Assembly: GCA_038087875.1 (NCBI GenBank)
Contig: CM075993.1
Span: 10,604,001 to 10,668,000 of the forward strand
DNA length: 64,000 bases
Direction of reading: 5' to 3'
Source of the DNA: Malacoraja senta
Lineage: Eukaryota
Shown: positions 406 to 44,959 of the stretch, piece by piece
How the letters are laid out: each line of letters starts with the position of its first letter
Numbering within the stretch: position 1 is the first letter of the stretch
Notes under the pieces: generated by a model
Seen by the model: the letters and a program-made list of their open reading frames with translations, nothing else
Told to the model about the DNA's origin: nothing
The model's database searches: none
Position numbers and translations under genes: made by a program

Positions 406-486
406 CGCGTAGAGTACATACTGGTCCATTATCCTGGTTTTTGGATCTTTTGTTTCTGAACTGACTTGGGATATCTAATGAAAGAT
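406..486 (-). CDS. USP3: USP3 exon 11 (gene continues beyond left edge)
   Basis: ctttcaag| (D)LSLDIPSQFRNKRSKNQDNGPVCTLR |gtaagg; 81 nt; preceded by a short 84-bp intron (487-570). Confidence 0.96.
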
Positions 487-570
487 CTTGAAAGAGAAAA
501 AAAAAGTCAGAAATATAATAACCTCCCTATGTAGAAAACAGCTAAAACACAAACCTGCAAAATCACTCAC

Positions 571-677
571 CAAGGAATGGATCAAATTTCCGAGATTCAG
601 TTCCACATATTAGACAGTTTACTTCATTTTGAAGTATTCCTCCAAATATGTTAGTGACAACTGTAGAAACACCATTT
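571..677 (-). CDS. USP3: USP3 exon 10
   Basis: ttttcag| (I)NGVSTVVTNIFGGILQNEVNCLICGTESRKFDPFL(D) |gtgagt; 107 nt. Confidence 0.97.
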
Positions 678-3526: not shown

Positions 3527-3803
3527 TCTCCCAGCTAAAATGCCTTTGAAGCAGTGTTGTATATTTATTATACCTTTTTTTTAACTGAAATTCCTTAAAC
3601 AAAATACATGCAGGAAACTTCTGCAACAGCAAATAACATCTCCATTGAGAGAGCAAAAAAACAATTTGCTGGAGGGCATTGCTGCCTGGCCAGCTGAGTT
3701 CTTCCAGCAGCTCAGATTACAGCATCTGCAGCCACCCGTGTCTCTGCAATGGGAAGGGCTGTTTAACCAAGTTTGGACGACACCAAAATAACCTGCTGCC
3801 TAC

Positions 3804-3917
3804 CTGAAATTTGGCATGATCTTCCAAATGACATAGAAGAGAGATTCAGGACAGAATGCGGTCTGGCTTCCTTGCCATAAGGCGCAGAGTGTTTTCCGGA
3901 ATTCTTCTACTAATGAA
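3804..3917 (-). CDS. USP3: USP3 exon 8
   Basis: taagcag| (V)SLVEEFRKTLCALWQGSQTAFCPESLFYVIWKIMPNF(R) |gtaggc; 114 nt. Confidence 0.96.
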
Positions 3918-3987
3918 CTGCTTATTTAGCAATGAAAAAGAAAAGGGTGGAATATTAATAGCACAACCCAAGTACACTGATGAGAAG

Positions 3988-4492
3988 TGTATGAAGGAAC
4001 GGCAGATGCTGGTCTACATAGTAGACACAACATGCTGGATTAACCTAGCGGGACAGGCAGCATCTCTGGAGAGAAGGAATGGGTGACGTTTCAGGTCCAG
4101 ACCCTTCTTCAGACCGATGTCAGGGGAGGGGGTGGGACAAAGATAGAATGTAGTCGGAGACAGTAAGACTAGTGGGAGAACTGGGGAGGGGATGGCGAGA
4201 GAAAGCAAGGGCTATCTGAAGTTAGAGAAGTCAACGTTCATACCGCTGGGGTGTAAACTACCCAAGCGAAATATGAGGTGCTGTTCCTCCAATTTGCGCC
4301 GGGCCTCACTCTGACAATGGAGGAGGCCCAGGACAGAAAGGTCAGATTGGGAATGGGAGGGGAGTTGAAGTGCTGAACCACCAGGAGATCAGGTAGGTTA
4401 AGACGGACTGAGCGGAGGTGTTCAGCAAAACGATCGCCGAGCCTGCGCTTGTTCTCGAAGATGTGGAGAAGTTGACACCCGGAACAGCAGAT
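3988..4492 (-). mobile_element. Penelope-like element 3' end (GIY-YIG endonuclease remnant plus hammerhead-bearing terminus)
   Basis: CSGCQLLHIFENKRRLGDRFAEHLRSV (decayed YIGET..R..EH) and, in a shifted frame, [28 protein letters not shown]; followed by CTGAAGA..GAAACGTC. Confidence 0.85.
4082..4115 (-). ncRNA. Minimal type-I hammerhead ribozyme motif (Penelope-associated)
   Basis: GGU-CUGAAGA-A-GGGU-CUGG-ACCU-GAAA-CGUC-ACC on the minus strand: intact catalytic core, stem II, palindromic stem III, GUC site and GGU/ACC stem I. Confidence 0.7.
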
Positions 4493-4790
4493 CGGCACAG
4501 ACATTGTAGGCCAAAGGGCCTGTTCTTGTGCTGTACTGTTCGATTGTCTAAAATGTCTACTTAGCTGCCCTCTGACAGGAATTCAATCCATCTGCTTTAA
4601 AGTCACAAACTATATATTAACTATGACAATATAATTTGGCAGATTCAATAAAAAGCAGCATTCTAATTTTTGGCATGGCCAATTTTTCAAGATTTGACAT
4701 TGAAGTATTTCTTCCAATTACAACCGAGTGCTTATATTTGTATACTTCGATGTTATGGTGCATGTGAGTTATAAAAAAGTAGTTACATAC

Positions 4791-4904
4791 ACACTGTTGT
4801 CGCCCTGGCTTCTGGTGTGATAGGTCCTTCTCCCTGCTGTTTTACCACTACGCAGTTCCACTGCTGGCAGCTCCTTGAAATAGCAGCAGAATTGCTGGAT
4901 GTTA
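4791..4904 (-). CDS. USP3: USP3 exon 7
   Basis: tttgcag| (S)NIQQFCCYFKELPAVELRSGKTAGRRTYHTRSQGDNS(V) |gtatgt; 114 nt. Confidence 0.97.
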
Positions 4905-7900
4905 CTGCAAATGGGGAGAAAAAACACCAATTGGCACTTCCAAAAATAGAACATTAAAAATGTTCAAGTATCTTTGCTTAGTGTTTCATACCCAAAAAAA
5001 CAAATAATCTGACCAATGAACTGTATAGATCAACAATAATTAAAAGTAGAAACAATACACTGGAAACACTCACATCCAGTAACTTGTGTGGAAAGAAAAA
5101 TGGTTAATGTAGCAAGTCAGATACCCAGTAATGTTAACTGTTTCTCTCACTATAGACACTGACTGACCTGCTGAATGTTTCCAGATTTTGCTTTTATTCA
5201 CACAAACAAATAATTTCCCTTTAAATTTTGATCCATATGCCCCATTTGATCTAAGGGCTTTTCAGCAAATATACTTTTGAAATGTGACAGCTAATTTGCA
5301 CCATGTCCTCACAAATAGCAAATCAAATAATCTTTTATTGATGGTGGATAATGAGATAAATGTTGGCCGAGATGTAGCAAGGTACATCGTCATCACATTG
5401 TGTAATGGATCTTTTACACCCACATGGGTCAGCTACCAGGGGCTCATTTAACATCCTATTGGGAAGGTGGCATATCACCATAATGGACCACTTGCTCATC
5501 GATGTACTGGATTGCCTGCCTAGACTTTGGTGCTCAGATACTCTCGGCATAATGCAACGTATGGTTCAAGTTGTGGTTAGCCAAGATAAGCAAATTAATA
5601 AGAGTCAGGTGCAACCAGTGGTCAAATGCTGGAAGATTCAGCTCTCATCGGTGAGAAAGAGGAAAAGGTAAAAGGTAGGTTCTCACTTACAATTCATCTT
5701 TTTAGCACACACACGATTCACAAGACCAAGAACCTTGGTCGGCATGGCAATGGAGTTGCTGCCTTACAGGGCCAGAGACCCGGGTTCGATCCCAATTACA
5801 GGTGATATCTATACAAAGTTTGTACGTTCTCCCTGTGACCTGTGTGGGTTTTCCCCGGGTGCTCTGGTTTCCTCCACTCCAGACATACGTTTGTAGGCTG
5901 ATTGGTTTGGTTAAATTGTACATTTTTCTAGTGTGTAAAACAGTGCTAGTGTATGGGGTGATCACTGGTCGGCATGGACTCAGTAGGCAGAAGGGCCTGT
6001 TTCCACACTGTAACTCAACTAAACCATGTTAGTCAGAGCCAGGATTTACCCAATCAGTAAAAAAACTAGTCTCTTAAATCAAAATACCCAATTTGCAAGG
6101 AAAATAATTGCAGATTCCGTAAATCAGACAGAACTTGTAGACAGAAATAGAATTAATATTTCAGGTCGACCACTTTTTATTAGATCTGGCTTTTCATGAA
6201 CACTGTTGAGTTTTGATGAAAGGTCATCAAATGTTTCATCCACAAGTATTGGCCAACGTTGAGCATTTCCAGTATTATCTGTGTTTAGATCAGATTTCAG
6301 CCATCTGCACCATTTGGCTCACAATTAACCTCGATTTAATCCCACACATAAAAACCACAAGATCAAGTACGGAATACATCTGCATTAAATACAACACAAC
6401 CACACAAACCTGACCAGATTACATAGATTATCACCCTAAATGTAATATTAAGTTCATTCAATTTTTCCTGCAGTACTTTAAATTCTAGCACCTTAAAAAC
6501 ATTTAGTATTGCAAAAAAAAACAATGCAAGGCATTGAATAAACATTTTGTACCTGCATCAACAATTACATTTAAAGTCAAAACACGTTCCTTTTGCTCAG
6601 ACATGTTTGTAGTTTTAAAAAAAATTAAGTGCCATTTTTTAAATGAAATCTATAGAAACAGTAAAGTTAATCAAAAATAAGGACAGCAATAATTACTATT
6701 TTATGTACTAAATATTAAAACCAAAAAGGCCTTTAACAATGTTACATTTTCAGGGTGCCTATTGCTAGACAACTTGTTCCAACATACCCGAAAGCACATT
6801 TTTAATCCAAGACCAACAAATGCTCATCTATCTGGGTTTCACTTTACAATTAAGTGGACTTTAAATAATTAGGTAAAAGCATCCACTATATCAGTAATGA
6901 TAAGTAGTTAAAATTATGCAAGTATATTTTAGGTGCCTCATTGCACTAATTTGAGAACATTTATCACCATCTCATTCCTATGTCAATGTTAATGTGGCCA
7001 CTCTTGCTTGTTCAAAAAAAATCCAGATCTAATGTGCATGCAGCATCAATAAATTATACATACTTGCAAAGTGTTCCCTATCTGTGAAATGCAGTACAGA
7101 AAAAGCTTGCAAGTAGAAAGACCAAGAACTGCTTTCTGTAATATTGTCCAGGGCCAGCTGTTCAAATGGAGATTACACAAACACTTTACCAGGACCAAGG
7201 CTCATCTGTTCAGACCTACTGTCACCTCATCTTTAGTTACAAGAGGGAGGTATAATAGGAGACGGCAAAATGTTTAGGGAAGGACCCAAAAAAGCTTTTA
7301 TTTTCTTATCGTTATCTAGAATTATCTAAAATTATGGGTCTTCCATACGAGGTGAGGGGGGAATCCTTCCTAGAGATGAGGAGGGAATGGAACCGTGGTC
7401 GCTTTCAGGAAGGAGGGCTCAGATAGGGTAGATAGCAAGAAACTTCTCCCCATGGAAGCGGTGTCTTGGAACGGGTTAGTTTAAGAGTTTAATGGGGATC
7501 TCAGAAAGAATCTTAGCACTCAATGAGTGGCTGGAATATGCCCAAGTTGGCAGAAGGAGGAGGCACTCATAATATTTAAAAAAACATCTGGACGACCATT
7601 TGCCTGGCCAAGGCAGAGTAGGCTGCAGATCAAGTGCTGGTAAATGGGATTCGTATAGACAGGCAGCGTCGTCACATAGACATGGTGGGTCAAAGTTCTG
7701 TGCAGTATGCCAACATTAAGAAGCCAATGCTAGAGATTAGTTAAAATTAAAATAAAAAATAAGGAGGAAATGTACAGACCCTAAACAGCCAGTACCCCAG
7801 AACTCCATTAGGTTGAAGATAGACACAAAATGCTGGAGTAACTGGCCTGAATGTGTAGAGCTAGACTGGATGAGCACTGCACCTGATAGCCAAGACCAAG

Positions 7901-8225
7901 TAGACCCAAACTCCATATCCAAGGCCCACTCTCTTGCACACCGACAGCTTTTGACAGCTTGCTGGGGCTGTGAAAGACTTTCCAAAATATTCCCCAATGG
8001 CTACATTTAAAAACTATTCAAATAAATAAAATTCAAACAATGCACTAATAGATATATTATATTCAAAATAATCAAAATATATTGTCTTTAAAAATCAAAA
8101 TAATGTAAAATTACAGTAATCTCAAACACCAGCAGTACCTGTCATAAAGTAAAGAGCTAAAATCACAAAGGATGCAGCAGTAGGCGATTAAGCTCTTCTG
8201 TGTCCACTCCATCATTACATACCAT

Positions 8226-8336
8226 CAGTGGCGGACTGGCCAGGGTGTCAGCTTGCCCGATGGCAAGTGGGCCCCTGATGAAGTGGGCCCCCTTCGTCTC
8301 CTGGCAACCAATATTTTTAGACCCAGTCCGCCACTG
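8226..8336. mobile_element. hAT-type MITE (111 bp)
   Basis: Perfect 14-bp TIR CAGTGGCGGACTGG; 8-bp TSD CATACCAT at 8218-8225 and 8337-8344. Confidence 0.9.
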
Positions 8337-8849
8337 CATACCATCATAGTTGAGATTTTACCTCAGCGGCACTTTCGCGCTCCAACTCCATATTTTTTAA
8401 TTCCCTTTAATGTCTGAAAGTTTATCAATCTTGAATATATTGATGGATTGAAGTTGCACATCTCCTTTGGGTAGAGAATTCGGAAGTTTCAGTTGATGCA
8501 ATGCAAGACCACCCCTTGTCAAGTGCAACATTGGCACTCCAAAAAGGAAAATAAAATTCCCCACTGCAAATGCCAGCAACCTCTTCCAGCTCAAAAATAA
8601 ACTGTGGCAAAGGAACTGTTCAATGTTGGCAAGACAATGTTCACTGAAGCAATCAGTTGTTCCAAGAAAAATAGTGGAACATTTGAAAAATGTTGGATAA
8701 AACCCATTATTTGTAATTATTTTGCATGTGTAATTACTTTTAAACTTTTCCTTGGTTTCCTTGTTTCTCATTCATCACAGTAGACCTCAGTAAAGCAGGA
8801 TCTTAGATGTATATTTTGCACTGCTGCAACAAAAAGCATCATCCATCAA

Positions 8850-9270
8850 TGTAGAAACAAAGAACTGCAATGCTGGTTTATACCAAAGATAGACACAAAG
8901 TGCTGGCGTATCCTCAGCAGGTCAGGCAGCGCTTCTGGAAGAAAGGATGGGTGATGTTTTGGGACGATCCCTACAGTTTCTGTCATTCATTCTGCAAAAT
9001 TCCTGCAGTTTTTTTTGCACTCACCAATAAAACCAACAGCCAAGAAGAACTCAAGGGTCTACAGTTAACTTTCAAACCTTTTCAACTACTCATTTTAACA
9101 TAAATTAAATTGTAGCAATTTATAAAACATCACCCATCCTTTTCCTCCAGAGATGCTGCCTGACCTGCTGAGTTACTCCGGCACTTTGTGAAACATCACA
9201 TATCCATGTTCTCCAGAGATGCTGCCTGACCCGCTGAGTTACTCCAGCACTTAGTGTCTACCTTTGGTAT
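8850..9270. mobile_element. Penelope-terminus fold-back with tandem right arms and a captured local segment
   Basis: Left arm 8850-8966; right arms 9123-9265 (two tandem copies); spacer similar to 11157-11298. Confidence 0.7.
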
Positions 9271-9341
9271 TAACCTTCAATTGCAATCTGCAGTGACTCA
9301 GCCAATCGATAAAGTGCAATAATGTTTGCGCTGTCAGTTAC

Positions 9342-9424
9342 CTGAGGGACTGGAGGATGGCATTCATAAAACATGTGTTCCCAAGATTGCGAAGCCCCGT
9401 AGCACAAATGGCAGAGGTTCCTCC
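9342..9424 (-). CDS. USP3: USP3 exon 6 (USP Cys box, catalytic Cys)
   Basis: ttaacag| GGTSAICATGLRNLGNTCFMNAILQSL(S) |gtaact; 83 nt; GLRNLGNTCFMN Cys-box motif. Confidence 0.97.
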
Positions 9425-9790
9425 CTGTTAAACAGTTGGATGATCAGTTAATTGGGTTATCCAGATAGCTAATGATGCATGAACAGTTAAAGTCAAAGTA
9501 CAGTCCCTTAGTAAAATCCAGTTACCACATATTGAACAAGACCAAACCTTTTCCCAGATGTCAGAATATTGATTCTTTTAAAAATCCAGCATAATTATGC
9601 AAAAGAGGAACACAAAGAAAAAATTGTGCTTAGCAAAGTTTCACGAGACCATCTTTTTTGCTACAGGAGAAAGTCAGCTATTAAAAAAGATCCAATGGAG
9701 ACTCCCTCCAATCCATTAAAAAATTATTTGTAAGTCATAAAGTCATGTGAAAGGAACATAATTAGGCCTTTCGGCCATCAAGTCTATCCC

Positions 9791-10598: not shown

Positions 10599-11590
10599 TC
10601 CCGCCATTCAATCTTGGCCGATCTACCTCTCCCTCCTAAACCCATTCTCCTGCCTTCTCCCCATAACAGAGGTTAAGGGGAGAAGGCACCCGTACTAATC
10701 AAGAATCTGTCCATCTCTGCCTTAAAATACACATTGACCGCCTCCACAGCCTTCTGTGGCGGGGAATTCTACAGATTCACCACCCTCTGACTAAAGAAAT
10801 TCTTCCTCATCTCCTTCCTAATGGAACATCCTTTCATTCTGAGGATGACTAGTCCTAGACTCTCCCGCTAGTGGAAATATCCTCTATCCAAGCCTTTCAC
10901 TATTCGGTACGTTTCAATGAGATTCCCCCCTCATTCTTCTAAACTCCAGCGAGTACAGGCCCAGTGCCGTCAAACGCTCTTGCTTTGCTTTTGCTGACAA
11001 TACAGTTCCTCCTTAGGAGGTCAAATGGCAAACTATCTTCACTGCTACATTTCTGTAACGCATAAATCAAGTGAGAGCAAATAAACCCACCTAAAATTTG
11101 AATACTCGTAATTCCTTGTGGACACATGACAAGCTTCCCAGCACGAATGCAGGACTAATTCCTGCAGTTCTTTTGCACTTGCCAATAAACCCAACGCACT
11201 TGCCAATAAACCCAACAGCCAAGAACACGACTTCAGGGTCTGCAGTTAGCTTTCAAACCTTTTCAACTGCTCATTTTAACATAAATTACATTGTTGCAGA
11301 TTTTAAAAAATGTAGATAGAATATTAACACCAAAGTCAGGATTATATACTTAGGCAAATAGATAGCATTAAATATCTATAAACAATCATGTGAAAACCGA
11401 CACAAGCAAATTTGTACATGATAAATATAGTCTCTTGTCATGTATGCCTTAGAGTTTAGTTAAAAGGCACTGCGTACCCAATTATTTTTTACTGAGCAAA
11501 CAAAATGTGGAGAATGATTGGCACAAGAACAAATTGTCAAATGAATGTTCCAATTAATAAGAATGCCAAGCAATTATGGTCTGTACTTAC

Positions 11591-11672
11591 ATTAAGCTTC
11601 AAATACTTGCTGTTTATGGATGAACTTTCCATCAGCTTTCTTTTGCAGTGTCTGTCTGCTGAAAATGCTGAA
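11591..11672 (-). CDS. USP3: USP3 exon 5
   Basis: ccaccacag| (N)SAFSADRHCKRKLMESSSINSKYLKLN |gtaagt; 82 nt, phase 2-0, linking exons 4 and 6 in frame. Confidence 0.93.
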
Positions 11673-12212
11673 CTGTGGTGGAGAGAACATGTTAGAAACT
11701 GGATTACTTTCACCAGACACTACAGTATTTTCAACTCTGCCATTTATCAAAGGATATTTTGTGCTCAATATCACAGCTAGGTTCAAGAAGTTAATTATGC
11801 AACGAGTCATGCTGCACAAATAGACAAATTCCCACTGAAACACAGCAAGAAACTGGATGTGATCCATTGATTATATCTAATCAGGTACCAGAATTATTCA
11901 TGCAACTATAGCATAAAGTCAAATGGTGGCCCAGAAATCTTGGTTAGCAAAATCAGACTAAAACACATTGTTCAAGATTTAGTGCAATGGGCCAAGCTCT
12001 TAATTCCTCAGTCAGATTGTTACATATCAGAGCTTCACATCTAACAGATACATGATGCTAGAATATTTCCATCATCATTCTCAGCAAAGATACTAGAGGA
12101 GCAAGATAAACCACTCGACGAAAAAGACGTAGTACGGTCATGGGCATTTTTATTCGCGCCATTTTGAGAATCGAATATATGAGTTTTTTTATTTTTTAAA
12201 TGGGCTTCTGTC

Positions 12213-12340
12213 ATGGCGTCCACATCTACCAGCGTAGCGAGCCGTTCTGCTATAGTGCTCAAATCGCCAATGTAAGCGATTCGAGCACTTTATAGCAGTC
12301 TTTCTTCAGGTTCCCCACTAAAGATAAGAAAACAATTATA
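12213..12340 (+). pseudogene. Frameshifted THAP zinc-finger N-terminus of a P-type transposase
   Basis: ATG at 12213; joining frames gives MASTSTSVAS(R/C)SAI/CSNRQCKRFEHFIA/SFFRFPTKDKK, resembling the THAP pattern C-x-A-x-x-C-x-N...SFFRFP-x-x-D. Confidence 0.6.
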
Positions 12341-12559
12341 ACTTTGTCTTGAGGCCGATCTCTTCCGATAGTTCAGATCGCGGAGCCGGGGGTCACCAGA
12401 AGAATTGCTCTGATCGCTGGCCCGCGGACTATAACATCTTGAATCCCTCCGGTGTGCGGAGCTTCTAGTCGCGGGGGCAGCGTGCACTTTCCCTCGCGGA
12501 GTCTGGGATTCCTCGCCAGAGAAAAGCTCCGACCGCCAGCCCGCGGAGATTGAGAGGGG

Positions 12560-12935
12560 ATCTTATAGAAACATACAAAATTCTTATGGGGTTGGACAGG
12601 CTTGATGCAGAAAGATTGTTCCTGATGTTGGGGAAGTCCAGAACAAGGGGTCACAGTTTAAGGATAAAGGGGAATCTTTTAGGACTGAGATGAGAAAAAC
12701 ATTTTTTACACAGAGTGTGGTGAATCTGTGGAATTCTCTGCCACAGAATGTAGTTGAGGCCAGTTCATTGGCTATATTTAAGAGGGAGTTAGATGTGGCC
12801 CTTGTGGCTAAAGGGATCAGGGGGTATGGAGAGAAAGCAGGTACGGGATACCGAGTTGGATGATCAGCCATGATCATATTGAATGGCCGAAGAGCCGAAT
12901 GGCCTACTCCTGCACCTATTTTCTATGTATCTATG
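12560..12935 (+). mobile_element. CR1 LINE 3' fragment nested in the P element
   Basis: RTRGHSLRI-type C-terminal coding remnant and 3' UTR ending TTCTATGTATCTATG. Confidence 0.85.
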
Positions 12936-13301
12936 TATAACATCATGAAGCCCCAGCAGTGGCGGTCCCGAATCGGCTTGTGTTTAAGCCGGTTCGAAAT
13001 AGTGTTTAAAATACATGATAAATGGTGTTAAATATACACAATGTACACGGATCAGTGGTGTTTGAAATACATGATAAATGGAGTTATAGTGAACAACGAC
13101 ATGCCACGAGGAGCACACATTAAAGCCTTAATTTCCTTCCCAATGTATGATGACTAACATATATAATTCTATTCTTATGATCCTGATAATGTATTATATT
13201 ATATGACATTTTTTGGTACATGAGCAAGTTATAGAAAGTCTTCTTTTATAAACCATTGAAAGTCTTCTTTTATAGATCTAGACTAAGCACAATAATAAAG
13301 G

Positions 13302-13377
13302 TAGACAAAAATACTGGAGAATTTCTCCAGCATTTTTGTCTACCTTCGATTTTCCAGCATCTGCAGTTCCTTCTTAA
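13302..13377. mobile_element. Tiny Penelope-terminus fold-back nested in the P element
   Basis: Short palindrome; TSD ACAATAATAAAGG at 13289-13301 and 13378-13390. Confidence 0.75.
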
Positions 13378-13478
13378 ACAATAATAAAGGTATCAATTTT
13401 TACACTGCTGTACTTTTTTGGTTTTGTTCTTGTTGTAAGGCATGCATGGTATTGTAAGCTCTTCTACATTTAAGATAA

Positions 13479-13510
13479 ATCAAGTCAAGTCAAGTCAAGT
13501 CAAGTCAAGT
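13479..13510. repeat. (TCAAG)n tail of a minus-strand Rex1-type 3' end
   Basis: Six TCAAG units followed by TTTATTGTCATGTGTCCC, the same sequence as at 39378 onward. Confidence 0.8.
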
Positions 13511-14932
13511 GAGTTTATTGTCATGTGTCCCAGATAGGACAATGAAATTCTTGCTTTGCTTCAGCACAACAGAATATAGTAGGCATGAATACAGAATTTA
13601 TTCAATAGGCATAAATTGACCGATTAGAGGAAAAATGCATCTTCAATATACATGTCCCTCCCCACCCCTGAAAACAATTGCATTTAAGTGACATATCATC
13701 CATTCTGCAGTTATGTAGTTATAATCAGATTTGTTCTTATAAGTTAATTCTATATGATATTTTACTGTAATTTCAGATGTTGACAGTGGGTCCAGAATAC
13801 TCGTTGATAAGATCTCCTATAGCAAACTACGGAGTACTTGTCAAAGAACTGCCGTCTTTGTTCTGAACACCCTGTATATCTCACACATAAAACAATAAAT
13901 TATGTAATCTTACCATAAATGACAGAAATAAAAAGTGTTATCCTTGTTTATGAATTTTGTTGTAGAATGATTTAAAATTGAGTGGATTGATGCAATATAC
14001 TGCTAACCCACAAATGTTTAGTAATGAGATATTCACATTTAAAAATTCACTCGGAGCTCGGGTGGCTGACAGCGGCCGCCCGAACCGCACAGCGGAGCCG
14101 CAGCTAGACCCGGGGCTCACAGGTGACTTGGGAACTGCAGCTAGTCCTGGAGGGTCCTGGCCCCTATGCAAAAAAGGCTGCGGACCTCTGGACTAAACCA
14201 AACCCTCGATCCTGTCCTGCCATCCTTTTAAATAAAAATTTGCAACTGAAATGGTGGTGCGTCTTCATTGCCGGGAAATACGGTGACTCATTTCCCTCAA
14301 ATATATGTCAGATTGTCCTCAATTATATGTTAAATTAAAAACTAAACTATGGTAGCAATGCACAGTATTCATGTTTAAAGCTCGCACTTCTGCATCAATG
14401 TAGGTATGTATACACTACATTTCTTTACACTAATATAGAATGAAAGAATATCTTGGCTTGTGTTCATTATTTTATTCACTATATTAGGATTTTGGAAAGA
14501 GGTTGAATGAAAGAAAGAAAAAGGTTCAATAAAGAGGAGAGCACAAGAAAGAAACTAGAGAAATACATATATGTGTGTTATATAATTATATACATCAATA
14601 TCACATATATATACATATACATATACAATACACAATACATATACATATATATGATCCATGAGGAACTTTGAAATCTATTATCTCTATCTTGCCTCTCACA
14701 CACAGAAACACACACATACCGTTCCCCCACAACACTGATTAAACCAAAGATAATGCATATGGTCCAGAGACCTTTCATTGCGCATTGCTGCTCATTTTAT
14801 ACGCTTTCCCTTTAAATTTTTTTTTATTTTTTTTAAGAAGCACCTTATTTATTATAAACAAAGATCATAATGGTCTATCATAGAAGGCTAAAATAGACCA
14901 AGATAAACTGCAAAATTCAATGGACTGATGTG

Positions 14933-14973
14933 GATTAAACCAAAGATACTCATCTAGTATCTTTGGATTAAAC
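14933..14973. mobile_element. P-type excision footprint
   Basis: GATTAAAC [CAAAGATACTCATCTAGTATCTTTG] GATTAAAC: an 8-bp direct repeat around fused stubs of both TIRs of the host element. Confidence 0.8.
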
Positions 14974-15276
14974 TGCGAGAGGCATAACGGAGATCGGGGT
15001 CTTATTCCTAAAATGGCGGCAGTGACGTTCCGTAACATTCCGATCCATACTGCACGTCAGTCCATTGGATTTCGTAGGAGTGGTCTATCTTGCTCCTCTA
15101 GTATCTTTGATTCTCAGTAAAATACAATAAATTTATTTTTACTTTTTTTTTTTTTTAACTGGAGTGGGGGGGGGGGGGGGGGGGGTGGTCAAAAGAGATA
15201 AATACCACATCTATACAATCTTGGCAAGAGTAAAGAACTCAAAGTTCCACATTGAGACCATCACTAAGCTTTTCTT

Positions 15277-15498
15277 GTGGAGGAACCGCAGATGCTGGTT
15301 CACCCTGCAGATAGACACGAAGTGCTGGAGTAACCCAGCAGGTCAGGCAGCATCTCTGGAGAAAGGGAACAGGTGACGTTTCGGGTCGAGACCTTTCTTC
15401 AGACAGTAGTGAAGGGTCTCAACCCGAAACGTCACCTATTCCTTTTCTCTAGAGATGGTGCCTGACCCACTGAGTTACTCCAGCATTTTGTGTCTATC
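15277..15498. mobile_element. Penelope-terminus fold-back element
   Basis: Inverted arms with a minus-strand hammerhead core CTGAAGAAAGGTCTCGACCCGAAACGTC; flanked by CTAAGCTT repeats. Confidence 0.8.
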
Positions 15499-16465
15499 TA
15501 AGCTTATCATTGGCAAAGTTGAGAAAAAAGGCATTGAGAATGTTGCAGAACAAAATAACATGGCTTCAAATTCAAGAGAATATTTGTGAAATAGGTTATT
15601 CTTTTATTTTTGTTTTACAAGTTTCAATATGCCATAATTTAAAATAAAGTTGAAGAATTACAGGATAAATGGGTAGTGCAGTTAAGCACAAACACTTAAT
15701 TAATATGTTAGCAGACACCATAGCCAGAAAGTATGTCACACTAATATCAGATTTCAATTGTGCTATTACCAAGTACGTTTCAAGCAATGTTTTCAAGTTA
15801 GATGGTGAGCTGGCAGTTCATATTTCTACCCATTCAAACTGTCTACTTTGCTGAGTATTTCCAGTATTCTCTTTTCAAGTTCAAGTCAAGTTCAAGTTAC
15901 ATTTATTGTCACATGCACCAACTGGTACAGTGAGATTTGAGTTACCACAGCCATACGAAAAAAACCACAATACACGATAGAGTTTAACATGAACATCCCC
16001 ACACAGCGGAATCAACGTTCCCACTGTGAGGGAAGGCAATAAAGTTCAGTCACCTTCCTCATTTGTTTAGATAAAGTGACACAGTTAGAGTGAGGTAAAA
16101 TACATAGCAGGAAACCGTCTGATTGTGATGAAAAGTATCCGATTAAATAAAAAGTGGCGATACATGCAATTTTTCAACAAGATGTAGGAATTCCTGGCTA
16201 AGAAATGATTTCTTGGCCACAACTACTCCTATTCAAGGGGGGGGGGGGGGGGGGATGATCTACCTTCCAAAAACTGCAATGTGATGAAGGCAGTGCCACA
16301 TTGTCGTCAGTCGGGAATTGGCAGGATTTGAGTCAAAGACAATGAAAGAATGGTAATATACTTCCAAGACAGGATGACAATTTTGTTCAGAATTTGGCCC
16401 TTTTGGTCAGGATTCAAGATGGTGGCGACAGACACAGGTGAGGTAAGGACAGCTGGTTAGATCCC

Positions 16466-17046
16466 ATATAACAATTACAGCACAGAAACAGGCCATCTCG
16501 GCCCTTCTAGTCCGTGCCGAACACTTACTCTCACCTAGTCCCATCTACCTGCACTCAGACCATAACCCTCCATTCCTTTCCCGTCCATATACCTATCCAA
16601 TTTATTTTTAAATGATAAAATTGAACCTGCCTCCACCACTTCCACTGGAAGCTCATTCCACACAGCTACCACTCTGAGTAAAGAAGTTCCCCCTCATGTT
16701 ACTCCTAAACTTTTGTCCCTTAATTCTCAAATCATGTCCTCTTGTTTGAATCTTCCCTACTCTCAATGGAAAAAGCTTATCCACGTCAACTCTGTCTATC
16801 CCTCTCATAATTTTAAAGACCTCTATCAAGTCCCCCCCTTAACCTTCTGCGCTCCAAAGAATAAAAACCTATCTTGTTCAGCCTTTCTCTGTAACTTAGG
16901 TGCTGAAACCCAGGCAACATTCTAGTAAATCTCCTCTGTATCTCTCTATTTGGTTGACATCTTTCCTATAATTTGGCGACCAAAATGGTACACCATACTC
17001 CAGAATTGGCCTCACCAATGCCGTGTACAATTTTAACATTACATCC
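16466..17046 (-). mobile_element. CR1 LINE 3' fragment
   Basis: LKLYTALVRPILEYGVPFWSP motif; ATCCC flanks both sides; inserted in a GC-rich repeat spanning about 16410-17520. Confidence 0.85.
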
Positions 17047-17777
17047 CTTGGGGGTGCTCTGGGTGTTCTGAGGTCGGCTGTGGGAGGTCCCCTGGGCACA
17101 GAGTCAGAGTGGTGGCTGCGAGAGTCAAGGGACGATGCGTTCATGGGTCAATGTGCCTTGATTGAGGCGTTGGTGGAGCAGGCCGGGCCGCTGGAGGATC
17201 TGCAGCAACCTCGGACTCGATTAGTTTGGGTGCTGCTAAGTGGTCGGGAGCGCAGATCGGATGTAGCATGCAGCGGCACGGAGTAGCACCAACCGACCGA
17301 CCTTGCGACTCTGACCCAGTGCTGCTGCAGAACATCGAGCATTTACGGTAAACTTAAGACTCCACGTTGTTAACAACTTTGGACTTGAATCTCACAAAAT
17401 GACGCCAGAAACCTGCCAATTCTGCCAAAACGCACTGTCTGTACAATCTACTATTCTTACACTTTTGTACTTAAACTATGATTGTGCCTATGTATAGTAA
17501 GATTTGTACTGAACTATAAACATTGAACTTTACATAATGCATTTTCCTGGAAGGTACAAGAGGTATTCGGGTAAATAAACACCCTTCTATCATTTTACAA
17601 GGCATATGGCAGGCTCAGACTCATTTGTTTCCAAATACCTTGGCTCTGACCTGTTCTTGATGGAACAGTGTGTGCAGTTGGTCCAGTTCATTCTGGTCAA
17701 TGGTGACTTACAATGAGAGGAATTGCACAATTCCGAATATAACCATGCCAATCCCAACTCTTTCTCCCCTAATCACA

Positions 17778-19040
17778 GAACATAGAACAATGCAGCACAC
17801 AAACGGGCCCTTCTCGGCCTACAATGCCTATGGCGAACATGATGCCAACTCATCTGCCTGCACCTAATCGATATCCATCCATTTGTCCATCCAAAAGTCT
17901 CTTTAATACCACTATCATACCTGCCTCAATTGTCACTCTCACCTTAAAACAATGTCCTCCAGTATTTGATTTTTCCATCCTGGGGAAAAAGGATCTGACT
18001 TTCTACCCTATCTACACCTGTCATTATTTTATATATTTCTATCATAACCTCCACTGTTCCAGAAATAACAATCCAAGTCTGTCCAACCAGTTCCCCTTGC
18101 TAATCCACACCTCATTCAGGTAAACCTCCTCCACACCCTTTCCAAAGCCTCCACATCCTTGCTGTAATGGGGTGACCTGAAGTGCACGCAGTATTCCAAA
18201 TGCACCTAACCAAAGTTCTAGAAAGCTGCATCATGACATCCCGACTTATACTCGATGCCCCAACCTCTGAAGGCAAGCATGCCTTCTTCACCACACAATC
18301 TACTTGTTCTGGCACTTACAGGGGTTATGCCCTGGGATCCCAAGATCCCTCTTGTACATCAATGCTGTTAAGGGTCGCATTTAATTGTATGTTTTCCCCT
18401 TGCATTCAACCTCAAAGTACAACAGTTCACACTTGCTATAATTAATCTCCATCCGCTGTTTCTCTGTCCATTTCTGCTGCTGATATATGCCACTGTATAC
18501 TTTGACAGCCTTCCTCGCAATCCACGATCCCAGCAATCTTGGTGTTATCTGTAAACTTACTAACTAACACATCTATGTTGACATCCAAGTAACTTATGTA
18601 TATCACTAACACCAGCGGTCCCAGCACAGATCCCTGCAGTACTCCACTGATCCTCTGCCTTCTATCAGTAAGCCTGTTTGGTGTCCACGTGATCGTCACT
18701 GTTAATCCCATGCATTTAATCTTCTGGATTAACCTACCAGGGAGGTCTTTATCAAATGCCTTATTAAAATTCATGTAGACTTCATCACCGCAAGAAACTC
18801 GATCTAGTAATACATGACCTGCATGTACAAAAACATGATGACTGTCCCTGATTATTAACCCATTCTCTTCCAAATGGGAGTAAAATCAATCCCGAAGAAT
18901 CTTCTCCAATGGTGTCTCTCCCACTGACGCGAGGCTAACCAACCTATAATTCCCCAGATTCTCTCTATTTTCCTTCTCAAATAAGAGGATAATTTTGGCT
19001 CCTTTCCAATCCTCTGGGACCTCACCGGTGGCTAGAGAAG
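17778..19040 (-). mobile_element. Old CR1 LINE fragment
   Basis: FNKAFDK, SGVLQGSVLGPLVLVIYI, KFTDNTKI, LSRTLVR motifs. Confidence 0.85.
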
Positions 19041-19144
19041 TTTAGTTTGGTGATATGGCATGGAAACATGCCTTTCGGCCCACCGAATCCGCGTTGACCA
19101 ACAACCCACATACACTAGTTTTATGTTATCCCAGTATCACATTC

Positions 19145-19795
19145 TAGGATGTGAAACCTACACCTTCCTCGAAGGTGGAGTCGCAGGTAGATGGGGTGGT
19201 CAAAAGGGCTTTTGCCACATTGGCTTTCATCAGTCAGAGTGGTCTCGACCCGAAACATCACCCATTCCTTCTCTCCAGAGATGCTGCCTGTCCTGCTGAG
19301 TTACTCCAGCTTTTAGTGTCTGTGAGTATAGAAGTTGGGAGGTCATGTTGCAGTTGAGTATTGTGTTCAGTTCTGGGCACCATGTTACAGGAGAGGGTAC
19401 AGAGAAGATTTACAATGATGTTGCCAGGACTAGAGGGTCTGATTTATACGCAGAGGCTGGGTAGGCTGGGACTCGAATCCTTGGAGCGCAGGAGGTTGAG
19501 GGGTGATCTTATAGAGGTGTATAAAATTATGGGAGGAATAGATCTGGTGGATACACAGAGTCTCTTTGGGTAAGTAGGTGAATCAAGGATCAGAGGACAT
19601 AGGTTTAGGATGAAGGGGGGAAGATTTAATAGGAATCTGAGGGGTAGCTTTTTCACACAAAGTGTGGTGGGTGTATGGAACAAGCTGCCAGAGGAGGTAG
19701 TTGAGGCAAGGGATATCCCAACTTTTAAGAAACAGTTGGACAGGTACATAGACAAGGACCGGTTGAGGGATATGGGCCAAAGTCAGGCAGGTGGG
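19145..19795 (+). mobile_element. CR1 LINE 3' fragment with a nested Penelope terminus
   Basis: ERVQRRFTMMLPGL, RRRLRGDLIEVYKI, VVGVWNKLP. Confidence 0.85.
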
Positions 19796-20384
19796 ACCTT
19801 CTGAATTTTGTAGTCAGTGGGCCAGTACTCTGCATATCGCCAACTTGGACAATTTTACATTTTTTTCATCAAGCCAATTAATCTACAAACCTGCACGTCT
19901 TTGGAGTGTGGGAGGAAACCGAAGATCTCGAAAAAAAACCACGCAGATCACGGGGAGAACGTCCAAACTACATACAGACAGCACCTGTAGTCGGGATCGA
20001 ACCCGGATCTCTGGTGCTGCATTTTGCTGTAAGGCAGCAACTCTACCGCTGTGCCACCGTGCCTATGGGGACTAGTGTAGCTGAGACATGTATGGGTAAG
20101 GTCTGTTTCTACACTGTATCACTATGATTCGATGACGCACAATGTACAGAAGCCAATTAACCTGCACATCTTTGGAATGTGGGAGGAAAGCGGAGTACCC
20201 GAAAAGCCTCTCCGTCACAGGGAGAACATACACACTCTGTACAGACAGCACCTATAAACAGGATCAAACCCAGATCTCTGGCAGTGCAAGGTAGCCACTG
20301 TGCTGCCCCGAAATATTTCCAAAGCATTTTCTCTACCCAGCAACTTATTCCATGTGCTACCAGTAACCTCAAAATGAAATCTTA

Positions 20385-21355
20385 GTGACAAGATGCAAAG
20401 ATCTTCATCAAGGCTCCTTCAATCTCGTCTCTTGACCTTCTCAATAACCTGTGATAATTCCATCAGGTCCCTGGGATTTATCCGCTTTAATGCTCTTCAA
20501 GCATGTCCTGCTTCTTAATCTGAAGCCATCCTTGCATTCTCCACACTGATCTCACTGTCTGCCATGTCAATTACCTTGGTGAAAACAGATGCAAAGTACT
20601 TGTTCAGTAACTCACCTAAACCTCCAGACTCCAAGCACAAGTTCCCTCCTTTATCCTTCAACAGTCCTACCTTCTCCCTGGGGGAGAAGGGATGAGGTTA
20701 CCCTCATGTTTTTAAATGCAGGTATGAAAAGTTTGGGGATTTTCATTAATCCAACTCAAAGGTATAATCCCTTTTGGTTCTTCTAATTGTCCACTCGAGT
20801 TCTTTCCTCCCCTCTTTATATTCCTGAAAGGCCCTGTCGGATTCCATCCTCTTAAACCTTACATGAGCTTCCTTCTTGCCAAACGTACTATGTCTTTCAT
20901 CATCAAAGGTTCCCTTACTTTGCGCCATCCTTATCCCTCCTCCTTACTGCAACATGCCAGTTCTGAATATCAATCAACTGTCCTTTAAACCTCTCCTATA
21001 TCAGATGTGGACTGACCCAATAACAACCCTGTGTACCCTCCCGAGCTCCAGCCTAATAACATTGTAGTTTGTCCAACTCCAATTTAGTACCTTCCTGCAG
21101 GCCCAGCCTTCTCCTTATTCAAAACAATCTTAAAACTTATGTTGTGATCACTCCCCCCCAAAATGTTCTTCCACTGTAACACCAGTCACCTAGCCAAGCT
21201 CATTTCCCAACAGAAGGTCCTGTATGTTCCCTTCTCAGGTTGGACTATCCACATAATGTTTCATGAAAACCCGTTGGATACACCTCAAATTCTACCCCGT
21301 CTAAGCCCATGGCAATGAGCAAGTCCCAGTCAATATTAGGGAAATAAAGTCACCA
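20385..21355 (-). mobile_element. Degraded CR1 LINE internal fragment
   Basis: KKEAHVRFK...RKELE..IRRTKRDY, typical of the CR1 ORF2 linker; heavily decayed. Confidence 0.55.
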
Positions 21356-21529
21356 AGAGATTTGCGTTACAACTAGTTTCAGTTGTAGTTTAAAAATAAA
21401 AAAAACTGCAGATCGGCTGAAAAGCTAAAATAAAAACAGAAAATGAGGAAAGTAGATTAGGCAGCTTCTGTGGGAAGAGAAACAGGAAACATTTCAGGTC
21501 AAAGACCCTCCGTCAAGTAATTTCACGGA

Positions 21530-22070
21530 AGAATGAAGATATGTTGCAATTGTAAAAACATTGATTATATGCCACTTGGAGTATTGCATATAGTTTTGGT
21601 TGCCACATTACAGGACGAATGAGGTAGTAATAGTGAAAGTGCAGAAGAGACTCACCAGGATGCCGCCATAAAAATCAAAGCTGCAGTTACAAGGAAAGAT
21701 TGGAAAGGCTGAGTTTCTTCTCAAGAAGAGAGACTGTCACAGAGGATAGTCAGAATCTTTTTCTCATGGCAGGGATGTCGAAAAATAGAGGGCACAAGTT
21801 TCCAAGTGAGAGGAGAGAAATTTCAAAGATATCAGAGAGGTACATTTTTTCACAAGAGGGTGGTGAATGTTTGGTACGAGCTGCCAGAGGTGGTAGTGGA
21901 GGCAGATACTACCACAACACTTAAAAGGTATTTAGATAGGTACCGGGATAGTAAAGAAGTAAAGGGATGCAGCCTAATGCAAGCAAATGGGACTAGTGTA
22001 GATGGGCATTGTGGTCAGCGTGGACGTGATGGGCCATAGGCCCATTTCCCTGCTGCACACCTATGATCTT
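21530..22070 (+). mobile_element. Degraded CR1 LINE 3' fragment
   Basis: FFHKRVVNVWYELPEVVVEA...LKRYLDRY. Confidence 0.75.
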
Positions 22071-22689
22071 CTATCGCACCGAGTTCAATTCTATCAAACA
22101 GATTATGTATACCATATGTCTACCAGGAGATTTGTAATCATTGTTATGTCTTGTAGGGTCAGTAGATGGCATCCACAATTTAATGAGGTTGAAGGATTAA
22201 GGATTTGAAAATGAAATTTTAGATAAAGTACCATTGCAGTGAAGGCAATTTTTTTTGCCTAAAGCCTGTAACTCAGAATTAAAATTACCTTTATCCACCA
22301 AGGCTTATAAATAGAAATGATCCAATGAAGGGTATGACATTTTATTCGCATTTTTCCTAGATATTTCTTACTTGGCCAACTCCCATAAAAGGCAAAATAT
22401 AAATCAGGTCCACAAGTTTCCTTCCACATTTAAATAAACTAAAAACAATCACCCTTTAAAAAGAAATTAACACTTTCATCAGACTCTATATAAATACAGT
22501 TCTGTCACACAGATTATTTTTAAATCTAATCTTAGACATATGGGATAACTATGTTGACAAAGCGAAGAGTGTTAAACTAAAACTCAGAAAGACAGTTAGC
22601 ATTGCTGCAACTAAATGTCCACAAAAAGCAGTAAACACCCAATAAATGAAGGCAAAGGATAGAGCTGAATCCAAACAATGCATATATAT

Positions 22690-32441: not shown

Positions 32442-32525
32442 TTCTCCAAGTTCTGTAGATGCTCTCGGACTCTCTGCACCAGACCCATCTTCGTATCGTT
32501 TACCACAAAATCATCGCACCTATAA
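32442..32525 (-). CDS. USP3: USP3 exon 4
   Basis: cttctag| (C)YRCDDFVVNDTKMGLVQRVREHLQNLE(N) |gtatgt; 84 nt. Confidence 0.96.
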
Positions 32526-36576: not shown

Positions 36577-36742
36577 TGTAAGAAGGAACTGCAGATGCTG
36601 GTTTACACTGAAGATAGACACAAAATGCTGGAATAGCTCAGCGGGACAGGCGACAACTTTGGATAGAAGGAATGGGTCATTCCTTCTATCCAGATATGTT
36701 GCCTGATCTGCTGAGGTACTCCAGCATTTTGTGTCTATCTTC
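36577..36742. mobile_element. Penelope-terminus fold-back element
   Basis: Inverted arms; 14-bp TSD AGAATATTCATCAG at 36563-36576 and 36743-36756. Confidence 0.85.
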
Positions 36743-37762
36743 AGAATATTCATCAGACAGACTGAATTCTGCCTATTGCCAGAAGTAATAGCTCCCATTC
36801 CCAGTGATTTATATAAATGCGGAATATATTTATGAAAATATTGCTGCTCCTTATACATCTACATAAAAGTAACCCATTTCACTTCAATGTTCCACATGTC
36901 ATGCTCCACATTTTACATAGTAAAATGCACTCCGTCTAATATACCAAAGCATATGAATTTCCAATTTCTGAATATTTTTTAATGTGATCAAGTTTTAAGG
37001 GTACAGCAACAATTTAAATAAATGACTGGATCAGTTGATCATAAACACCTTCAAGCACAACAGTTGCAGTCACTCAGCCTCAACACCTTTCCAGATTATC
37101 CTTGCATCCCTCATTTCCCTTGGTGTTTCTAAAAAAAAATTACACCCTTGAATGCTTCCCTACAGAAGAATTGCAAAGATTCACAATCTTCCATCTTACC
37201 CCAAAGAATGTGTGACTCCTAGTTATAAAGTCGCAAACATAAAATCTTGAATTTTTCATCCATCAAGGTGCTTGAAATAGGAGGGGGGAAAAGGAGGGGG
37301 GGAATAAATAAATAAAAAAAATAAAAAAAATAGGGTCACCTCTATTCTTTCAGCTTTTGGAAGAAAAGCGGATCTACTCAAAATTACCTTAAAAGCAAAC
37401 CTTTCATTGTAGGTCAATGGTTCATTATAGAAAGTCAAGAAAGGATTTGCTAATAGGCTTATTAATTCTGGGATCGCAGGTACATTTGTTCAGACCCTTC
37501 AGTTTCATGGAGTAAGCTCAGGGCATTGTTCAAGAACATCAATCAAGATGGGGCAGCACAGAGGTGCAGCTAGCTGGTAAAGCTGCTGCCTCACAGGACT
37601 AGAAACCCAGGTTCAATCGAGACCTTATCTGTGAGGAGTTTGTACATTCCCCCTAAGGCTACATGGCTTTCCTCCAGGAGCTCCAGTTGCCCCCCACATC
37701 CTAAAAAAAAGTGTGGGGGAGTCTCTGTAAATTGCTCTTTGTGTGTAGGGAGAGGCAATATC

Positions 37763-38804: not shown

Positions 38805-39367
38805 CAATATCGAGGGAATAAAATTGGATTAGATTAGTTTTGTTTAGAATTTCACCATGGAAACAAGCCACTTGGCCCACTGAGCCTACACCAATCATCG
38901 ATCACCCATTCACACTAGTCGTTTGTTATCCCACATTCTCATCCATTCTCTACACATTGGGAACATTTACAAAGGGCAATTAACCTGCAAACTCGCACAT
39001 CTCTGGCATATGGGAGGAAACCAGAGCCCTTAGAAGAAACCCACAGTCACAGGGAGAATGTGCAAACTCCACACAAACAACACCAGAGGTCAAAATCGAC
39101 CACGGGTCTCTGGTGCTGTGCGGCAGCAGCTGGGCCGCCATTAGTGGTTGATGTCGGCGTGGATTCAGTGGGCTGAAGGGTCTTTGCATGCACCACCTCT
39201 TAACAGAGGAAGAAAGGAGTCACAAGTGAATGTATTTTTGATGAACTAAAGCAGTAGCACAAATATGATTTCAATCCATTTAAATTAGTTCAAGAAAATA
39301 AAAGCTACATTCCTTAAAAAGATTTTTTTTTTTTTAAACATATATATACATTTTTTTTTAATAAAGA

Positions 39368-41215
39368 ATTCAAGAGAGTTTATTGTCATGTGTCCCTGAT
39401 AGGACAATGAAATTCTTGCTTTGCTTCAGCACACCAGAACATAGTAGGCACGAATACTGAATAGATCAGTGTGTCCATATACCATTGCATAAATATATAC
39501 ACACATGAATAATTAAACTGATGAAGTGCAAATAAACAGATTATTGGCTATTAATGTTCAGAGTTTTGTCCGAGCCGAGTTTAATAGCCTGGTGGCCTGT
39601 GGGGAAAAAGCTGTTCCTGAACCTGGTCTTTGCCGTCTTCAGGCTGAAGGTAGTGGGGGGGATGTGTATGTGGCCAGGATGGTGTGGGTCCTTGATGATG
39701 CTGCCAGCCTTTTTAAGGCAGCGACTGCGATAGATCCCCTCGATGGAAGGGAGGTCAGAGCCGATGATGGACTGGGCAGTGTTTATCACTTTTTGTAGTC
39801 TTTTCCGCTCCAGGGCGCTCAAGTTTCCGAACCAAGCCACGATGCAACCGGTCAGCATGCTCTCCACTGTGCACCTGTAGAAGTTAGAGAGAGTCCTCCT
39901 TGACATACCGACTCTCCGCAATCTTCTCAGGTAGTAGAGGCGCTGATGAGCTTTCTTTATAATTGCATCAGTGTTCTCGGACCAAGAAAGATCTTCAGAG
40001 ATATGCACGCGCAGGAATTTGAAGCTCTTGACCCTTTCCACCAACGACCCGTTGATATAAACGGGACTGTGGGTCCCCATCCTCCCCCTTTCAAAGTCCA
40101 CAATCAGTTCCTTGGTTTTGTTGGAGTTGAGGGCCAGGTTATTGTGCTGGCACCATTTGGTCAGTCGATCAATCTCACTTCTGTACTCTGACTCGTCCCC
40201 ATCAGTGATACGTCCAACAGTGGTATCGTCAGCGAACTTGATGATGGAGTTCACACTATGATTGGCTACGCAGTCATGAGTATAGAGTGAATATAGCAGG
40301 GGGCTAAACACGCAGCCTTGAGGTGCTCCCGTGCTGATTGTTATTGAGGCTGACACATTTCCATCAATACGAACTGACTGTGGTCTGTGAATGCTGAATT
40401 CGAGAATCCAATTGCAGAGGGATGAGCAGAGACCCAGTTCTGCGAGTTCGGTAACCAGTTTGGAGGGGATGATTGTATTAAATGTCGAGTTGTAATCAAT
40501 GAATAACAGCCTGACATTTGAGTTTTTGTTGTCCAAGAGGTCCAGAGCGGAGTGGAGAGCTAGCGAGATCGCATCCACCGTTGGTTGATATGTTGTGGCG
40601 GTAAGCGAACTGCAGAGGGTCCAGGTTTTTGTCGAGGTAGGAGTTGATTTGCGCCATGAGCAACCTCTCAAAGCACCACCGGAAATTGGAGGAGCAGCAC
40701 CTCATATTCCCCTAGCGGCATAAACATTGACTTCCCCAATTTCCGGTAGCCCTTGCTGTCTCCTCCCCTTCTCAGCTCTCCCTCAGCCTCCTCTTCCTTT
40801 CTCCTTTCTTCTCCCCCCACCATTCATCAGTCTGAAGAAGGGTTTCAGCCCAAAACGTTGCTTATTTCCTTTGCTCCATAGATGCTGCTGCACCCGCTGA
40901 GTTTCTCCAGCACTTTTGTCTACTCTCAAAGCACTTCATCACCACAGACGTTAGTGCCACTGGTCGATAGTCATTGAGGCACGTCACCTTGCTCTTCTTG
41001 GGCACCGGTATAATTGATGCCCTTTTAAAGCAGGTGGGAACCTCAGACCTTAGAATTGAGAGGTTGAAAATGTTCATAAAAACTCCAGCCAGTTGGTCCG
41101 CACAGGTTTTTAGAACATGACCGGGTATACCATCAGGTCCAGGCGCTTTTCGAGGGTTCACCCCTCCGAAGGATTTTCTGACGTTGGCCTCTGTGACTGA
41201 AATACTATCAAAAGA
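39368..41215 (-). mobile_element. Rex1/Babar LINE, RT region to 3' end, interrupted by a Penelope fragment
   Basis: ORFs 40862-41221 and 39541-40671: [39 protein letters not shown]. Confidence 0.92.
40677..40922 (+). mobile_element. Penelope 3' fragment nested in Rex1
   Basis: [10 protein letters not shown] remnant and a hammerhead with GAAA mutated to AAAA; 12-bp TSD CTCTCAAAGCAC at 40665-40676 and 40923-40934. Confidence 0.85.
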
Positions 41216-44107: not shown

Positions 44108-44821
44108 CAAGCAGAGAGGTTTAAGGAGGAATATTTCATGATGTGAATCTCAAACAGCAGAAGGCATAAATTCTTGGTGTTCTAAAAAGAACCGTATGCA
44201 CACAAGGGCAGAAAATGAATATGCCGAGGTGGAAAAGGTTTCTGAGGCAATGCTGCAATAGTGCTATTATTAAGAGGTGTTTTTTGTTTAATAACTAAAA
44301 ACAAAGATCTAATTTTTAATGAAAAATTAAGGATTTTTTGGTCTATCATGTCCAACCTTCATTCAAAAAGAACCAATACTATTAGTTCTGGGCTTTTCAG
44401 AACCTCGTTGAAATACCTTAGAACGGTAATAATCAAACCTGCAGCGCAGCTCGAAATTTTTCATTTCCTGAACTATATTTTGACCAACAGTCAGAAAATA
44501 AATTACTGATATTCTATTAGCTGGAACATCCTCAGGACATGAAATGATAAATTGACCCAAGTCTATTCATTCCAGTGCAGAGAAATAGTCAACTTTATAT
44601 ACTTTGATATTCAGTCTGTTGAAAAGGCTATCAGTTTCAGTCAAAACACACAAACCAGTACCTGCTCGAGTTTCCTGAGGCAAATGTTATTTAGCTTCGA
44701 AGGTTAAACAAAGAAGTCCTTTAAATTCCAACAGAAGGTACATTAAAACTGCATACCAAGCCTTGTGGCTTGAACAAATTACTACCTGCATTAAAAGATT
44801 TTATATCCAAGCTTCACATAC

Positions 44822-44959
44822 CAGTAGGTGCTGTAACTGCTGCAATCCATACATACTGCATGCTGCAGCTTCTCCTTTTCATGCTTTTCTGATTTTTTGA
44901 CATTGTTGGAATGAATCTGGGAATCTTCATAGTGTTTCTTGGCATGCCCATTCACATAT
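44822..44959 (-). CDS. USP3: USP3 exon 3 (ZnF-UBP)
   Basis: ttttgcag| (R)YVNGHAKKHYEDSQIHSNNVKKSEKHEKEKLQHAVCMDCSSYSTY(C) |gtatgt; 138 nt, phase 2-2. Confidence 0.96.

Follow-up and report, generated by a model that had tools for sequence, protein, structure and literature searches.

The closest described counterpart of the element reported here is Izanagi, a non-autonomous P element of medaka (PMC2820524). Izanagi is 1316 bp long, has terminal inverted repeats (TIRs) of 27 bp that begin with CAA and an 8-bp target-site duplication (TSD), occurs in 13-28 copies, and carries a degenerate THAP domain over three putative exons together with a nested LINE and without a transposase (PMC2820524). 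A first-pass annotation of the present locus held that vertebrate P elements are documented mainly in zebrafish and as THAP9, a statement that misses Izanagi, a near-exact structural precedent (PMC2820524). The zebrafish protein zfTHAP9 carries out excision but not integration in the assays reported (PMC10983969). P-element TIRs are 27-32 bp long (PMC1562414, PMC3698922), and of the two DNA strands, one is cleaved by P transposase at the element end and its partner 17 nt into the TIR (PMC7776569, PMC10983969). At Drosophila P donor junctions both 8-bp TSDs are kept and the trimmed 17-nt tails are joined at 1-3-nt microhomologies, one junction having a 10 + 2 + 15 form (PMC2895639, Table 1). 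Cleavage by hAT, MULE and Transib transposases leaves hairpins on the flanking DNA (PMC5499845), from which it would follow that hAT and MULE elements leave no TIR arms at the donor site. Our literature search, which extended to neither Repbase, Dfam nor most subscription papers, found no published description of P elements in cartilaginous fishes; the accessible part of PMC12361510 discusses TcMar only. The element described below probably belongs to the P superfamily, as a non-autonomous DNA transposon of the cut-and-paste type with a THAP-first ancestor, a reading to which we assign a probability of about 0.7.

Host gene, ends and internal structure of the element

The window, i.e., the whole stretch of 64,000 nucleotides that was analyzed, contains USP3, and tblastn places the element in a USP3 intron, between the exons at 32444-32524 and ~11570-11671. 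Its THAP-like frame runs antisense to USP3. Among the best 120 of 353 matches, the exon at 1005-1154 shows 98% identity to sawfish USP3, 96% to that of four sharks and 90% to that of a chimaera, vs. at most 76% to all the other matches listed. Judged by this exon, the host is a cartilaginous fish of ray or shark type, in keeping with the earlier call of a probably chondrichthyan genome. The host exons and the ends of the element are as follows.

11570-11671, minus strand: nearest host exon (USP3), 414 bp from the element
63286-63366, ~54569-54595 (adjoining an N gap), 44818-44961 and 32444-32524, minus strand: USP3 exons at higher coordinates than the element
9344-9424, 4790-4936, 3803-3922, 1005-1154 and 407-676, minus strand: remaining USP3 exons
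12077-12084 and 15110-15117, no strand: TSD ATTCTCAG, an exact 8-bp match
12085-12116, plus strand: left TIR, 32 bp, with similarity continuing to ~40 bp
15078-15109, minus strand: right TIR, 32 bp
12157-12165, plus strand: subterminal motif, with an inverted partner at 15010-15018

The TIR-bounded element (12085-15109) measures 3025 bp, or ~2.4 kb once nested repeats and an internal stub are subtracted. Its TIRs are complementary at 31/32 positions (97%), and their similarity extends over 40 columns with one gap and two mismatches. The outer duplication matches at a length of 8 only, of all lengths from 2 to 13 tried; two random 8-mers from the 64-kb window are identical with a chance of 2.85e-5. 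Hence, both the 32-bp TIRs with one mismatch and the perfect 8-bp TSD claimed by the first-pass annotation are borne out. The sole TIR mismatch (A at 12109) is private to the present copy, since the position is G elsewhere, in 96-98% of the depth of all three DNA runs (3/3) and in 121 of 123 RNA reads. An 8-bp TSD flanks two of the two TIR-bounded units in the window, namely the outer element and the stub. The observed/expected CpG ratio is 1.0-1.2 at both element ends vs. 0.37-0.46 outside. The partial TIR word found at 4967-4976 lacks a partner and was taken as chance, and the TIR pattern gave, as expected, no match in viral and metagenome contigs.

The termini are of the YARNG type. An 8-bp TSD combined with YARNG termini is typical of hAT elements (PMC3014272), while YARNG is cited for P in the Izanagi paper (PMC2820524); the ends fit hAT equally and therefore do not decide the superfamily by themselves. 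Indeed, Izanagi's own assignment to P rests on its THAP domain and on YARNG, a motif given to hAT elsewhere (PMC2820524, PMC3014272). The 32-bp TIRs fall within the published range for P of ~13-32 bp (PMC10983969, PMC1562414, PMC3698922). Two superfamilies are excluded by the 8-bp TSD: ISL2EU, which carries THAP and has an AT TSD, and Kolobok, which has a TTAA TSD (PMC4482050, PMC9587614).

Several repeats lie within the element, as listed here.

12401-12547, plus strand: GC- and CpG-rich duplicated unit with 119-bp spacing, resuming at 12936 past the nested retroelement
12548-12934, plus strand: 3′ fragment of a nested retroelement, presumably CR1/L2-like; several copies in the window, depth in the millions, no Pfam match
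13289-13392 (core 13304-13377), no strand: nested SINE-like fragment with its own 15-bp target duplication
13480-13600, plus strand: another nested repeat of high copy number, preceded by a (TCAAG)n tract, with a second copy at 39367-39462

One more repeat, nested or shared, may be present in a GC-rich block (57%) at 14040-14240, where DNA depth is raised (14099-14217) and the RNA is biased toward the opposite strand. Immediately left of the stub, at 14890-14937, the right subterminal sequence recurs in inverted and decayed form (80% over 30 nt against 15048-15077); an older MITE-like unit may make up the final 200 bp of the element. In Rfam nothing reached gathering score, and 10 weak matches to hairpins fell on SINE-like palindromes. 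Tight head-to-head palindromes of one SINE-like repeat occur at 15309-15499, 49468-49649, 36608-36744 and 13298-13346, and in three of them the long arms are 3-13 nt apart. Elsewhere in the window, a Tc1-like element at 51723-54397 has 48-bp inverted arms (98%), a transposase frame at 52291-52692 (HTH_Tnp_Tc3_2, E 2.4e-19) and an apparent GC-rich insert near 53047-53900. By eye, a short element at 8220-8345 seems to have inverted ends and to be flanked by a direct repeat of ~8-10 bp; it is possibly a hAT-type MITE.

A dispersed family with abundant ends

Reads from four of the 22 runs listed, derived from the related organisms A, B and F (best word share 0.60), were placed on 11600-15166 at 80% likeness. 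The DNA runs were X1, X2 and X13, and the small-share runs X15-X20 were left out. Summed depth was 0-35 in the four flank bins and at least 234 in every interior bin. The two bins over the THAP-like region reached 8,999-9,522 in X1, 3,709-4,538 in X2 and 677-879 in X13, and the end bins 191,818-214,135, 84,999-120,775 and 15,627-22,294, respectively; these depths are not copy numbers. The coverage shows a dispersed multicopy family in which ends are far more numerous than interiors, a pattern expected with MITE derivatives. Uniqueness of the TIR pair in the genome, which the first-pass annotation had named as an outcome that would speak against its reading, is contradicted by multicopy depth in all three DNA runs from related organisms (3/3). 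Outside the retroelement, the pieces listed (24 of ~287,000) diverge from the present copy by ~5-14%, which points either to an old age of this copy or to diversity within the family. No piece spanning an element end together with its flank was found among those listed, nor among the joints listed (15 of 460).

PolyA RNA of organism B (X22, 6% of the run) covers the element and leaves the flanks uncovered. Assuming the usual library orientation, this family RNA is biased to the plus strand over 12195-12432 (23 vs. 3-5) and in the bin 13742-13860 (130 vs. 3.5). The reads stem from the family, and not demonstrably from the present copy.

A THAP-like remnant near the left end

Three regions of the element carry possible coding traces.

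12213-12349, plus strand: putative decayed N-terminal half of a THAP-like domain in three frames (ATG at 12213, Cys at 12248 and 12256, SFFRFP at 12299)
12328-12465, plus strand: open frame, possibly a decayed second THAP half (NFVLRP ... CSDRW in the expected CxxH position)
13777-13860, plus strand: candidate exon after an acceptor-like site, at a strand-biased peak of family RNA

The frameshifted peptide CSNRQCK...SFFRFPTKD reported about 130 bp inside the left end is present, its two parts lying in different forward frames (CSNRQCK starting at 12256 and QSFFRFPTKD at 12296), with the ATG at 12213 in the third frame, 128 bp inside the end. Some other family copies have 7 extra nt after 12319. 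A THAP domain is recognized by the landmarks C, C, P, W, C, H, F and P (PMC3698922). Two Cys and FP are found here, spread across frames; neither W nor CxxH is intact, and C-x-x-H-F/Y is absent from all forward frames. The word CSDRW stands at about the right distance, yet within the GC-rich duplicated unit, and this overlap weakens the reading of a second THAP half.

A single instance of the motif pair "C-x-N then S/T-F/L/Y-F/H/Y-x-F-P-x(1-2)-D/E" is present in the window vs. 0.013 per resampled 64-kb window (150 Markov resamplings), a comparison for which the motifs were chosen post hoc. Pfam returned no family match for 16 frames in or overlapping the element, and none to hAT or BED domains in the frames scanned. 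A PDB sequence search with two THAP read-throughs gave no match at E ≤ 10, and the atlas had no usable match for two natural frames. The claim of a decayed THAP domain is thus supported by the post hoc motif count only and was not confirmed by a profile or homology match: a THAP profile hit, whose absence the first-pass annotation counted against itself, was missing from Pfam, as were PDB and atlas matches, for pieces of only 21-50 aa. We consider a decayed THAP domain near the left end likely, as read from the motifs.

The remainder of the coding search was negative. For 13776-13895, three candidate homologs included none at E ≤ 10, and none was found at E ≤ 0.001 among 1.84 billion representatives; for 14108-14335, there was likewise none among 18 candidates. 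A control with USP3 confirmed that proteins of cartilaginous fishes are present in the word-indexed database; the blanks themselves weigh little because the queries were short and decayed. Differences at 13781, 13808 and 13820 were considered as synonymous changes under selection and rejected, being private to the present copy. No catalytic remnant of a transposase was seen in the frames scanned in the present copy, as expected of a non-autonomous element.

The internal TIR-TIR stub and the superfamily

In the right subterminal region of the element, two short TIR segments are joined between copies of an 8-bp repeat.

14933-14973, no strand: candidate excision footprint, a duplication GATTAAAC at 14933-14940 and 14966-14973 around a 25-bp stub
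14737-14752, plus strand: third occurrence of the GATTAAAC octamer, with the initial 8 bases of the TIR behind it; 3-5 additional letters stand at this place in some other copies

The stub, CAAAGATACTCATCTAGTATCTTTG at 14941-14965, combines the left TIR's first 10 nt with the right TIR's last 17, overlapping by 2 nt, with one mismatch in the 17 nt of the right arm. The two flanking GATTAAAC copies are exact, directly abut both TIR termini of the stub and have the same length as the outer TSD. Other copies skip 33 nt of the stub region (four X1 contigs, one X13 contig and four X22 reads among 15 of 460 joints listed), and no such skip was seen in X2 among the same joints. One X2 contig, from organism B, starts at 14953, inside the stub, so that some other copies keep at least its right arm.

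When joining was simulated with identical tails of 5-35 nt (31 lengths), the stub arose from n = 17 only, where it was the sole product with at least 2 nt of terminal microhomology (24/25 positions matching); the stub is a single example and had been spotted before the simulation. An alternative parse as 10 + 2 filler + 13 has zero mismatches, so that the reading with 17 costs one substitution. The repeat around the stub can also be read as 10 bp, in which case the stub-less copies could be deletions. The recurrence of the octamer plus 8 TIR bases at 14737 likewise speaks against the scar reading. From its form we take the stub as a candidate scar of P-style excision with 17-nt cleavage, and we regard this feature, which the first-pass annotation had overlooked, as a better argument for P than the TSD and YARNG ends or the THAP call. 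It may have formed once, in an ancestor of the subfamily.

These features can be joined in a single history. In the parent element, a THAP domain close to the left end would have formed the start of the gene, and a transposase encoded elsewhere would have bound the ends of the present element and moved it in trans, with insertion into the USP3 intron at an 8-bp stagger. A second element with the same ends would have entered the right subterminal region, creating an 8-bp duplication, and its P-style excision would have left 17-nt 3′ TIR tails on the donor DNA, which joined via a 2-nt microhomology into the 25-bp stub. The retroelements entered the dead copy later; this invasion, the insertion with an 8-bp stagger and the amplification as a family are shown by the data.

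THAP domains are also fused to hAT-type transposases, in the THAP12/Zaphod group. The element could be a non-autonomous hAT with a THAP-bearing transposase, its stub being an extreme internal deletion or an aborted gap repair of a nested copy, although the accessible parts of PMC5753468 and PMC13631171 contain no confirmation of a THAP-hAT fusion. The 8-bp TSD and YARNG termini suit such an origin, hAT occurs in all vertebrate lineages (PMC4350176), and internally deleted copies do arise from interrupted gap repair (PMC3014272). Under a hAT mechanism, the stub, in which the two TIR arms and the two TSDs are all retained, could have arisen by deletion; however, hairpins form on the flank in hAT cleavage (PMC5499845), and blunt junctions from random deletion within the TIR arms are of the stub type in only 6 of 1024 cases. 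Moreover, anole hAT TIRs span 12-16 bp in the table excerpt of PMC3014272, vs. 32-40 bp here, and the Pfam scan described above was blank for hAT and BED. We therefore think a hAT origin unlikely. More improbable still is another or unclassified TIR superfamily such as Merlin (TSD 8-9 bp; PMC4482050) or MULE (8-10 bp; PMC5499845), with THAP-like words captured or due to chance and the stub an ancestral subterminal palindrome lost by slippage from some copies: THAP and transposase lack database confirmation and the right subterminal region holds repeated TIR-like words, but the motif pair would seldom arise by chance, lies 128-215 bp inside an end, by eye like Izanagi's THAP, and a perfect 8-bp repeat abutting both stub termini is what insertion produces.

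Membership in the P superfamily thus appears the likeliest reading. The proposal that a P lineage was mobile in this genome holds insofar as a mobile multicopy TIR family is present, with P its likeliest affiliation; the grounds originally offered, TSD and THAP, do not establish P. The abundant non-autonomous DNA transposon family is real, has a close teleost precedent and probably belongs to P. It would go considerably further, and we hold it doubtful, to conclude that an Izanagi-related P lineage was amplified to thousands of ends in ray- or skate-type genomes, that a fly-like 17-nt stagger left germ-line footprints and that an intact, expressed partner able to excise and integrate persists. 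The single dead intronic copy is itself without evident function. The stub type offers a genome-wide readout, in a vertebrate, for the 17-nt staggered cut known from Drosophila and could also separate P from hAT in non-coding families with 8-bp TSDs, while the TIRs could guide the search for a possible autonomous partner and for a P transposase of vertebrates that is able to integrate.

Compared with known systems, non-autonomous hAT elements likewise have 8-bp TSDs and YARNG termini and differ in their shorter TIRs (table excerpt), flank-hairpin cleavage and, in Hermes-type members, a BED rather than a THAP finger. The Drosophila P element shares with the present one TIRs of ~31 bp, an 8-bp TSD, donor junctions shaped like the stub (PMC2895639) and, probably, an N-terminal THAP domain, whereas its TIR sequence is unrelated past the first bases; a catalytic or GTP-binding domain of its type was undetectable in the present copy. 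Zebrafish Pdre/zfTHAP9 is likewise vertebrate and P-like, with 8-bp TSDs and internally deleted copies, but in Pdre2 the TIRs are 13 bp long and unrelated in sequence, and the element has subterminal repeats of 12 bp, a full transposase and ~50 copies (PMC10983969, PMC7776569). Izanagi comes nearest, sharing the 8-bp TSD, TIRs of similar length with a CAA start, a nested retroelement, the lack of a transposase, multicopy status and, probably, a decayed THAP near one end (PMC2820524). The 10-nt word at 12092-12101 is also found in the Izanagi TIR and, within the window, occurs only in the two TIRs; by eye, the end of Izanagi carries a word resembling the subterminal motif at 12157-12165. Unlike Izanagi, which is from a teleost, the present element resides in a cartilaginous fish, is ~2.4 kb long, is apparently far commoner, and has an internal TIR-TIR stub and a THAP remnant without a profile match. 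If it is indeed a P element, mobile P-like elements would extend from teleosts to cartilaginous fishes, where their abundance would be far above that of the P families of zebrafish (~50) or medaka (13-28).
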